In this document: positions 503 to 4,884 of the stretch, piece by piece
Numbering within the stretch: position 1 is the stretch's first letter
Layout: each line of letters opens with the position of its first letter
IMG/VR virus record: IMGVR_UViG_2703718812_000014
Location: 1 to 5,599 of that record
Length of the DNA: 5,599 bases
From: a virus
Taxonomy: Duplodnaviria > Heunggongvirae > Uroviricota > Caudoviricetes
Reading direction: 5' to 3' (one strand)
Made by a program: the position numbers and the translations under genes
The notes under the pieces: model-generated
What the model was told of the DNA's origin: nothing
What the model saw: the letters and a program-made list of their open reading frames with translations, nothing else
Databases searched by the model: none

Positions 503-707
503 CACATGTAGGTTAGCCTCTTACGCGCCGAAAGGCAAGGAGAAGCAGGCTATGAAGCAGCAAAAGGCGATGTTAATCGCCCTGATCGTCATCTGTTTAA
601 CCGTCATAGTGACGGCACTGGTAACGAGGAAAGACCTCTGCGAGGTACGAATCCGAACCGGCCAGACGGAGGTCGCTGTCTTCACAGCTTACGAACCTGA
701 GGAGTAA
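495..707 (+). CDS. mok: Mok-like leader ORF (70 aa), an in-frame N-terminal extension of hok
   Basis: ATG at 495 opens a frame that runs through hok to the same stop; the 19-residue extension MTCTCRLASYAPKGKEKQA resembles Mok leaders of chromosomal hok loci as I recall them. Confidence 0.55.
   Translation: MTCTCRLASYAPKGKEKQAMKQQKAMLIALIVICLTVIVTALVTRKDLCEVRIRTGQTEVAVFTAYEPEE
552..707 (+). CDS. hok: Hok/Gef-family type I toxin (51 aa), HokD/RelF-like
   Basis: Product MKQQKAMLIALIVICLTVIVTALVTRKDLCEVRIRTGQTEVAVFTAYEPEE has an N-terminal TM helix and the conserved Hok C-terminal signature (RKxLCEVR...EVAVF.AYE); it is nested in a mok-like frame with hok-like leader structure. Confidence 0.85.
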   Translation: MKQQKAMLIALIVICLTVIVTALVTRKDLCEVRIRTGQTEVAVFTAYEPEE

Positions 708-3501: not shown

Positions 3502-3527
3502 CTCAATCTGTTATCCGGGGCTATATT
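3498..3527 (+). promoter_or_regulatory. candidate late promoter PR' (-35 TTGACT 3498-3503, 18-nt spacer, -10 TATATT 3522-3527); a qut site is expected here
   Basis: Consensus-like hexamers directly after the Q stop, 60-80 nt upstream of an intrinsic terminator; this is the classic lambdoid Q-PR'-tR' layout. Inverted repeat TATCCGGGG (3512-3520) / CCCCGGATA (3565-3573) brackets the start region. Confidence 0.4.
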
Positions 3528-3588
3528 CCTCACGCGCCAGCAAAATCTGGCGTCGGGATTGGAACCCCGGATAGAGACCGCGACAGAC

Positions 3589-3610
3589 ACACGCCGCGAG
3601 CGTGTTTTTT
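3589..3610 (+). terminator. tR'-like rho-independent terminator (ACACGC-CGCGA-GCGTGT followed by T6)
   Basis: 6-bp GC-rich stem 3589-3594 / 3600-3605, 5-nt loop, T-run 3605-3610; about 75 nt downstream of the predicted PR' start. Confidence 0.6.
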
Positions 3611-3771
3611 ATTGTCGTATGCACGCGCACATCTGAATTATGGTGGGGCGCATGGGGGAGCTGAAAAGCTCGCCGGTCGGTTTCCCGGTAGTTCCAACCC
3701 TGTGCGTCTCACCACCCGATGATTGGAACCTGACGGTGGTGATAGTTTAGAAACCACCAGAGGGCGTCATT

Positions 3772-4188
3772 ATGACAACTCAAATTTCTGTTGAAACTCT
3801 CTCCCCGATCACCCATAACCGGATTCCTGTTATTACCACCGAACTTTTGGCGCAGCTTTACGGCACTGAGCCGGTGCGTATTCGCCAGAATCATCATGAG
3901 AACAAAGTACGCTTCGTTGAAGGGAAACACTTTTTCAAAGTTGTTGGTAATGACCTTAAAGAATTGCGGGTAGCTTTAAACTACTCACAAAATCCCATCT
4001 CTCCCAAAGCCCGCTCCCTTATCCTCTGGACAGAACGCGGAGCAGCCCGCCACGCAAAAATGCTCGAAACCGATCAGGCGTGGGATGTGTTCGAAAAACT
4101 GGAAGACTGCTATTTCAGTCAAAAGGATCCGTCAGCGCCAGTTGCATGCCAGAAAAGTTACGACACGCGAGTTCTCTGTTATCAGTGA
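3772..4188 (+). CDS. ORF6N-domain (phage antirepressor-like) protein, 138 aa; ends at an in-frame TGA followed by 46 further open codons to TAA 4327-4329 (possible truncation or readthrough)
   Basis: ATG 3772 with GAGGG (3760-3764) at 7-nt spacing; ...TTELLAQLYGTEPVRIRQNHHENKVRFVEGKHFFKV...ILWTERGAARHAKML fits the ORF6N pattern (AELYG...RFPE..F). The same frame stays open after TGA 4186-4188 with no independent start codon. Confidence 0.65.
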   Translation: MTTQISVETLSPITHNRIPVITTELLAQLYGTEPVRIRQNHHENKVRFVEGKHFFKVVGNDLKELRVALNYSQNPISPKARSLILWTERGAARHAKMLETDQAWDVFEKLEDCYFSQKDPSAPVACQKSYDTRVLCYQ

Positions 4189-4424
4189 GGTGGTGTCACT
4201 GTTTCCACAATTCAGTTACGGGATGATGATATTGTTATTTCCCTTGAGTCATGGCTGGAACTGGCGAGAGCCAATGGTTGGTTTGTTGTTCGCAGAGATA
4301 AACTGGTGGAAAGGTTGATGCAGCTTTAAAAAAGTTCTTGCATTTTTGCACATAAACTGCTTCAATTCCGGTACGCTTCGCAAAGCTGTATCGCGAGGCG
4401 AACCAAGCGCATGAACTTTACCAG

Positions 4425-4448
4425 AACCCGCCATTGAGCGGGTTTTTT
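4425..4448 (+). terminator. rho-independent terminator (AACCCGC-CATTGA-GCGGGTT followed by T6)
   Basis: 7-bp stem 4425-4431 / 4438-4444 and T-run to 4448, about 100 nt downstream of the ORF6N frame end. Confidence 0.65.
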
Positions 4449-4487
4449 ATTGCGGAATTAATTACGGACCGTTATTATTCTGCTCCC

Positions 4488-4563
4488 GGCCCTTTAGCTC
4501 AGTAGTGAGAGCGAGCGACGCATAATCGCCAGGTCGCTGGTTCGAATCCAGTACAACGCGCCA
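4488..4563 (+). tRNA. tRNA-Ile(CAU)-like element resembling E. coli ileX / phage ileZ, probably a non-functional remnant with an unpaired acceptor stem
   Basis: D-arm GCTC-AGTAGTGA-GAGC, anticodon loop CGCATAA (anticodon CAT, but G at position 33), T-arm GCTGG-TTCGAAT-CCAGT and 3' CCA. The 5' acceptor strand GGCCCTT cannot pair with the 3' strand ACAACGC, and the anticodon stem has an A-C mismatch. Confidence 0.45.
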
Positions 4564-4577
4564 CACTTATTTTCCCT

Positions 4578-4603
4578 GGCTCGCTTTTGCGGGCCTTTTT
4601 TTT
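4578..4603 (+). terminator. imperfect terminator-like hairpin (GGCTCGC-TTTT-GCGGGCC, one mismatch) followed by T8
   Basis: Read directly; sits immediately 3' of the tRNA-like element, as tRNA terminators often do. Confidence 0.35.
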
Positions 4604-4800
4604 AAATGTCTCACAATTCAGGCGGTTGACTGTTGTCTGGTTTGCGGGGAGTTTGTTAAAAGAAACTGGCATGGTGAATCCCCCTGTGCGGAGGGGCAAT
4701 CAGTGAGTAGGTATATGGGATAATCGCGGATTCAGGTGCTGGTACTGAATTCACCGGGAGGCACCCGGCACCATGCAAGAAAAAGAATGTGCATGCAAAC

Positions 4801-4827
4801 ATGCCCCTCTCCGGAGGGGCATTTTTT
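4801..4827 (+). terminator. rho-independent terminator (ATGCCCCTC-TCCG-GAGGGGCAT followed by T6), overlapping a second 10-12-bp A/T-rich hairpin (4817-4844)
   Basis: 9-bp stem, 4-nt loop, T-run 4822-4827; the T-run then pairs with A6 at 4834-4839 (GCATTTTTTA / TAAAAAATGC), giving mutually exclusive structures. The sequence runs into the N gap. Confidence 0.5.
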
Positions 4828-4848
4828 ATGGGTAAAAAATGCCCGAAT

Positions 4849-4884
4849 NNNNNNNNNNNNNNNNNNNNNNNNNNNNNNNNNNNN
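4849..4884. other. run of 36 N (assembly gap or masked bases)
   Basis: Literal n characters; true length and content unknown. Hides the start of the nanS-p-like gene. Confidence 0.95.

Follow-up and report, generated by a model that had tools for sequence, protein, structure and literature searches.

A tRNA-like sequence shared by Escherichia coli prophages is very probably a non-functional ileZ/argO chimera produced by a 174-bp deletion

A 76-nt tRNA-like sequence is found at positions 4488–4563 of a 5,599-nt stretch of viral DNA (the window, i.e., the whole stretch that was analyzed). It is very probably a non-functional chimeric tRNA pseudogene, the product of a 174-bp deletion in the three-gene operon ileZ-argN-argO. 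The 5′ body of ileZ is joined to the 3′ end of argO, and the parts of this hybrid are as follows.

4488..4563, plus strand: probable chimeric ileZ/argO tRNA pseudogene, 76 nt including the encoded CCA
4488..4531, plus strand: unambiguous ileZ part (tRNA positions 1–44), with the 5′ acceptor strand, the D arm and the anticodon arm with CAT
4504, plus strand (linear position 17): G18-to-A in the D-loop GG, present in 3 complete genomes and in 2 of the 24 copies read
4520, plus strand: U33-to-G, present in all hybrid copies read and in no intact ileZ
4532..4543, plus strand: crossover interval (tRNA positions 45–56), a 12-bp direct repeat, GGTCGCTGGTTC, common to ileZ and M15-type argO
4544..4563, plus strand: argO part, with T-loop G57, the 3′ T-stem strand CCAGT, the 3′ acceptor strand ACAACGC, the discriminator G and CCA

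Divided by structural element, the sequence reads GGCCCTT TA GCTC AGTAGTGA GAGC G AGCGA CGCATAA TCGCC AGGTC GCTGG TTCGAAT CCAGT ACAACGC G CCA. The D stem (GCTC/GAGC) and the D arm are regular, the anticodon stem has four of five pairs, the same as in the parent, and the T stem (GCTGG/CCAGT) has a G49-U65 pair in place of G-C and is accompanied by a GTTCGAATC-type T loop. These three arms agree with the canonical tRNA model (RF00005). Departures from the model are found in the acceptor stem, at U33 and at G18-G19. The acceptor strands GGCCCTT and ACAACGC form two of seven pairs (G1-C72 and T7-A66); ileZ and argO each form all seven. The anticodon is CAT (4521–4523), and the canonical U33 that should precede it is replaced by G at 4520. 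An earlier note on this DNA described a tRNA-Ile(CAU)-like body with a non-pairing 3′ acceptor strand and a G at position 33, and both descriptions hold. The change of G18 to A at 4504 is a further defect, absent from that note; G18 is kept in the common hybrid allele, and A18 is the allele of the window copy.

The ileZ character of the body is evident from the CAU anticodon and from identity to ileZ at 54 of 56 bases (55 of 56 in the common allele). The ileZ product of phages is a tRNA-Ile2, whose CAU anticodon reads AUA once it is modified with lysidine. TilS reportedly separates tRNA-Ile2 from tRNA-Met by the acceptor pairs C4-G69 and C5-G68. At these sites the hybrid has C4/A69 and C5/A68, i.e., the ileZ pairs are lost. 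Its 3′ strand is ACAACGC as against AAGGGCC in ileZ, and its discriminator is G as against A. Nor is the element an argO gene: argO contributes the last 20–32 nt only, with neither the UCU body nor the 5′ strand GCGTTGT. The 3′ strand is unpaired because this argO partner was deleted. No GCGTTGT that might serve as a 5′ partner is found nearby, and the sole other copy in the window, at 971, is about 3.5 kb off. Judged by the known recognition rules of RNase P, TilS and IleRS, maturation by RNase P, modification by TilS and aminoacylation of the hybrid are unlikely, and degradation is probable.

A BLAST search of positions 4350–4700 against phage records gave two-piece matches in which a 253-bp query corresponds to a subject span of 427 bp (phages Nil3 and PhiR49_2). 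The matched region is annotated in both phages as a tRNA-Ile/Met followed by two tRNA-Arg. The intact operon consists of ileZ (CAU), argN (UCG) and argO (UCU), and is said to have been described for phage 933W. The window is collinear on both flanks with the intact operons of Nil3, PhiR49_2 and E. coli M15, and an interior segment of exactly 174 bp is missing, comprising the 3′ end of ileZ, the whole of argN and the 5′ body of argO. From the start of ileZ to the end of argO there are 250 bp in the intact operon vs 76 bp in the hybrid.

When anchored on the left, the hybrid differs from the ileZ genes of Nil3, PhiR49_2, M15 and K_EC180 at 4504 and 4520 only, and bases 1–56 are otherwise those of ileZ. 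When anchored on the right, bases 57–76 (GAATCCAGTACAACGCGCCA; divided as GAATCCAGT ACAACGC G CCA) are identical to the argO 3′ ends of Nil3, PhiR49_2 and M15. The crossover is bounded by A44, the last base specific to ileZ, and G57, the first specific to argO. The T-arms of the two genes share the repeat GGTCGCTGGTTC[A/G]AATCCAG, which is exact over 12 bp and matches at 19 of 20 positions overall. Joining ileZ 1–56 to argO 58–77 in silico, for each of the three operons, yields the common hybrid with one mismatch, G33. The resemblance to a tRNA is not a chance one, because 54 of the first 56 bases match ileZ and the last 20–32 match argO exactly.

These alignments modify part of what the earlier note had proposed. 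It assigned positions 1–65 to an ileX/ileZ-type tRNA; the ileZ origin stands, but the ileZ part ends at or before position 56, the crossover lying within 45–56. It called the 3′ strand replaced, and this strand is indeed not that of ileZ, but it is argO's own 3′ end rather than foreign sequence. It saw no argN- or argO-like T-arms downstream; argN is gone, but the T-loop half and acceptor strand of argO are inside the feature itself. Its reading of the element as a scar of deletion or recombination, and not a remnant of integration, at the position of the Stx-phage ileZ-argN-argO cluster, is supported by the comparison with intact operons and their additional 174 bp. The breakpoint alignment that it suggested places the crossover in the 12-bp T-arm repeat at 4532–4543.

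The ancestor would have been the three-gene operon in its Stx-phage or lambdoid-prophage slot. A single 174-bp deletion between the near-identical T-arms of ileZ and argO, presumably by replication slippage or short-homology recombination between the direct repeats, would have fused an ileZ 5′ acceptor strand to an argO 3′ acceptor strand with which it could not pair, and three tRNAs would have been lost in one step. Under relaxed constraint the remnant may then have gained U33G, which is in all copies, and subsequently G18A in the window lineage, and would have been handed by recombination from one E. coli prophage to another. In E. coli, slippage or short-homology recombination has reportedly been described as a source of spontaneous deletions between short direct repeats. 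The hybrid resembles such deletions in that the endpoints are in a 12-bp exact repeat, one copy is kept and the intervening DNA is lost. It differs in that conserved T-arms from two different tRNA genes serve as the repeats and the product is tRNA-like; the mechanism is a presumed one.

A reciprocal product, with the 5′ part of argO and the 3′ part of ileZ, was found neither in E. coli genomes, where the top hits were all two-piece joins across intact operons, nor in IMG/VR. This is compatible with an intramolecular deletion, without proving one. A locus of E. coli SCPM-O-B-9504 (L030, 557–760) was considered as a reciprocal product and rejected, as it represents an argO gene disrupted by IS3. 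This locus retains an intact ileZ and a degenerate argN that ARAGORN does not call; an IS3-family insertion cuts argO within the variable loop.

Decay of the operon by other routes is also seen. Phage vB_EcoS-611R1 (L008, 996–1064) has an ileZ-derived ‘tRNA-Pseudo-TAT’ whose 5′ half is altered and whose anticodon region is shortened. It is located upstream of intact argN and argO, and is a separate and independent route to the loss of ileZ. In neither of these decayed operons are T-arms fused as in the hybrid; their lesions are an IS insertion, or point changes together with small internal deletions. In a prophage of E. coli K_EC180 (L005, 1501–1810), ileZ has a TTCGAAT T-loop and is followed by tRNA-Thr and tRNA-Gly, with no argN-argO, which shows the phage tRNA cassette to be modular. 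Given this ileZ allele, the ileZ/argO T-arm repeat would be exact over 20 bp.

In Stx and lambdoid prophages, the operon is found between the Q/methylase region and either stx or the esterase/lysis region. The hybrid has the corresponding position, downstream of Q and a methylase and upstream of STnc100, an esterase gene and lysis genes. Its leader and terminator are shared with the ileZ-argN-argO operons of Nil3, Lahn2 and Stx2a phages (e.g., AP012536), but it has lost the 174-bp interior and acquired U33G, as well as G18A in the window copy, and no functional tRNA is left. The flanking transcription signals are these.

4450..4478, plus strand: putative tRNA-operon promoter, identified by reading; TTGCGG (4450–4455), a 17-nt spacer, TATTAT (4473–4478) and a G+C-rich discriminator, CTGCTCCC
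4578..4603, plus strand: intrinsic terminator that belonged to the tRNA operon, GGCTCGC-TTTT-GCGGGCC and then T8

The promoter hexamers are kept in both types of upstream leader, with a different spacer. A consensus promoter scan missed 4450–4478 because the −35 hexamer matches at just three of six positions. The terminator is unchanged after the end of argO, and is identical to that found 3′ of argO in Nil3. As both the putative promoter and the terminator are retained, a short unstable transcript is possible, and a short hybrid transcript may still be made. That the remnant persists as a stable tRNA-like RNA of use to the prophage or the host (say, a regulatory RNA, or a decoy or sponge that captures a nuclease or tRNA-binding factor), with U33G fixed by its benefit and not by drift, is most improbable.

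Gene finders and covariance models do not agree on the hybrid. ARAGORN makes no tRNA call in the window or in the identical RefSeq locus; it calls all three parental genes (CAT, TCG and TCT) in intact operons and none of the hybrids. The Rfam tRNA model RF00005 matches the window at 4494–4553 with 35 bits (E 1.2e-4, gathering score 29). The alignment is local, covering model positions 7–64, and the acceptor stem falls outside it. Rfam tRNA scores and folding z-scores are as follows.

ileZ: 72.5 bits, full length; folding z-score −4.03
argO: 70.1 bits, full length; folding z-score −2.02
argN: 50.4 bits, full length
Hybrid: 35–37 bits, local (7–64); folding z-score −1.09 (window copy) and −0.97 (common allele)

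The hybrid thus scores about half of the 70–72 bits of ileZ and argO. Its predicted fold is no stabler than that of shuffled sequence, alone or with flanks, and no alternative acceptor-like helix formed when it was folded with its flanks. A low covariance score had been anticipated in the earlier note, which held that a high-scoring canonical tRNA call would speak against its reading; the Rfam score is above the gathering score but half that of the intact genes, and the tRNA annotated by PGAP is just 71 nt long and starts at position 6.

In all RefSeq genomes examined, PGAP labels the element as a 71-nt ‘tRNA-Met’ (equivalent to window 4493–4563) with no pseudogene flag. Examples of this label on hybrid copies in RefSeq loci are these.

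L001: 5144–5214
L004: 3006–3076
L006: 3006–3076

The ‘tRNA-Met’ of E. coli O111:H- 11128 has the locus tag RS33710, which sits out of series between RS08455 and RS08460 and suggests that it was added at re-annotation. A local covariance hit that carries a CAT anticodon gives rise to this spurious label, which represents a systematic PGAP mis-annotation of the chimeric pseudogene in the hybrid-bearing genomes examined.

The full-length hybrid is present in about 160 (162–164) of 5,426 complete E. coli genomes, always on the chromosome and in at most two copies per genome. This estimate is from a megablast search with the 76 nt, which seeds on hybrids or rare ileZ alleles only and matched 191 complete E. 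coli genomes; among 60 evenly spaced rows of the ranking, rows 1–51 were full-length matches. Carriers are mostly of STEC serotypes (O157:H7, O111, O121, O145, O103 and O45), with some swine strains. Only three genomes have the A18 allele of the window, and the others differ from the window by that single base. The hybrid is also found in 21 IMG/VR prophage contigs. No copy of its junction was seen in 50,697 phage records or in 185,579 species-representative genomes.

In the 24 copies read there are two 76-nt alleles, all with G33, in two types of upstream leader and three types of downstream flank. One of these flank types diverges 3 nt past the CCA. The possibility that the third type represents a hybrid ahead of stx was rejected, as this flank has a diverged terminator and then an STnc100-like element; at one locus (L028) a diverged version of STnc100 follows the hybrid. 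By their genes, at least two upstream contexts can be distinguished: DUF1133, isrK/C4 and ORF6N (the window and O157 Z1813), and Q, a hypothetical gene and a DNA methyltransferase (O111 11128). G33 is found in none of 7,490 copies of intact ileZ in 3,053 genomes, and no T33 hybrid is found in the 5,426 complete E. coli genomes, where the best single-piece match is 98.9%. As G33 is in all hybrids and in no intact ileZ, U33G arose in the hybrid lineage, and G18A later.

A rival reading on history alone is that the hybrid arose repeatedly, with the T-arm repeat as a deletion hot spot. One 76-nt sequence in two leader types and three downstream flank types could be taken in this way, as could the decay of the operon by other means elsewhere, namely the IS3 insertion in argO and the shortened pseudo-ileZ of 611R1. 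But each deletion would need the same extra substitution, since all 24 copies have G33, and repeated origin is accordingly unlikely. The universal presence of G33 favours one deletion followed by recombinational mosaic spread among lambdoid prophages, and a single origin with recombinational spread is the simplest reading. The same substitution bears on whether the junction might be a sequencing or assembly artefact from collapsed tandem tRNA genes. A run of 36 N is present 285 bases downstream (4849–4884), and the source is thus masked or gapped, yet about 160 complete genomes that were finished independently, by many laboratories and on many platforms, have the same junction, as do the 21 IMG/VR contigs, and it carries G33 as its own diagnostic substitution; an artefact can hardly be entertained. 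A scar of site-specific integration into a tRNA gene is just as remote. tRNA genes are frequent integration targets and the locus is inside a prophage, but the replaced end is argO, beyond which are the normal operon terminator and downstream region, and the upstream leader is the normal ileZ leader. In addition, 174 bp were lost and nothing was inserted, the 5 kb to each side of the hybrid contain no annotated integrase gene, and integration normally duplicates the 3′ part of a tRNA gene rather than replacing it. The tRNA pseudogenes at the ends of cryptic prophages in E. coli K-12 are an example of tRNA fragments left at the attachment sites of prophages or islands. They and the hybrid are alike as tRNA-derived pseudogenes in prophage DNA, but the former are duplicated 3′ pieces made by integrase at element borders, while the latter is internal, keeps the 5′ body and is attributed to a deletion within an operon. 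The hybrid is situated between Q-region and lysis-region genes, with normal operon flanks on both sides.

The reading that the hybrid encodes a functional non-canonical tRNA or tRNA-like RNA (a regulatory RNA, a decoy or a tRNA with an unusual acceptor) draws on more observations. The unflagged ‘tRNA-Met’ call (PGAP uses tRNAscan-SE) in all genomes examined is one, although this call starts at position 6 and reflects a truncated match to the model. The Rfam score exceeds the gathering score, and the locus still has three arms, its CCA, the terminator and a plausible promoter, but the acceptor stem has two of seven pairs with no GCGTTGT near the locus, the universally conserved U33 is G, G18 is A in the window copy, the fold is no stabler than shuffled sequence and ARAGORN rejects the element. 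The 76 nt are near-identical in about 160 genomes and in several flanking contexts while the flanks vary; this near-invariance is equally expected of a young allele spread by recombination. As deletion accounts for every feature of the sequence with no need of a function, a functional RNA is very unlikely.

The chimeric pseudogene is of importance chiefly for annotation and bookkeeping, in that about 160 complete E. coli genomes, mostly STEC, bear a spurious ‘tRNA-Met’. Its presence also signals that all three phage tRNAs for rare codons (AUA, CGA/CGG and AGA/AGG) have been lost. The junction with G33 is a clean marker of apparently single origin that could be used to trace recombination of lambdoid prophages in EHEC lineages. 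No new mechanism is revealed; the element is best seen as an ordinary pseudogene from a deletion between short direct repeats. A search of the accessible literature on ileZ/argN/argO and on hybrid or chimeric tRNA genes found no report relevant to the hybrid. A preprint on the STnc100/Pas sRNA mentions nearby tRNA hits but not the hybrid.

Several other elements are found in the window. A full-length match to the STnc100 sRNA (143.7 bits) is at 4640–4833, straight after the tRNA-operon terminator, with a TTGACT hexamer (4627–4632) just upstream. STnc100 fills the slot between the tRNAs and a DUF6645 esterase-like gene, where stx is found in Stx phages. The run of 36 N at 4849–4884 corresponds to about 220 bp in the matching RefSeq loci L001 and L004. 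These bases include a strong match to the AgvB anti-GcvB sRNA on the minus strand (L004, 3346–3407, 96.5 bits), which adjoins STnc100.

Upstream of the pseudogene, positions 3521–3719 and 3772–4318 display isrK (77.5 bits), the C4 antisense RNA (71 bits) and c4-a1b1 target elements, followed by an antirepressor-like ORF6N gene. Compared with the intact 185-aa reading frame of O157 Z1813, the ORF6N gene of the window has a premature stop near 4186–4188, and it is flagged as a pseudogene by PGAP.

Toxin-antitoxin sequences are present near the start of the window. A hok/sok type I system is located at 383–707, with a sok match of 108.4 bits at 383–557 and hokD annotated in the RefSeq equivalent at about window 552–707. 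A match to rsmX at 1548–1637 (34.9 bits, below the gathering score of 56) overlaps an istR hit in or at the end of a doc gene and is probably due to chance. The doc gene itself, which encodes a Doc (death-on-curing) family toxin, is at about 1114–1599 within the segment 916–1599. It is preceded by a 59-aa open reading frame (916–1095) that may encode the antitoxin.
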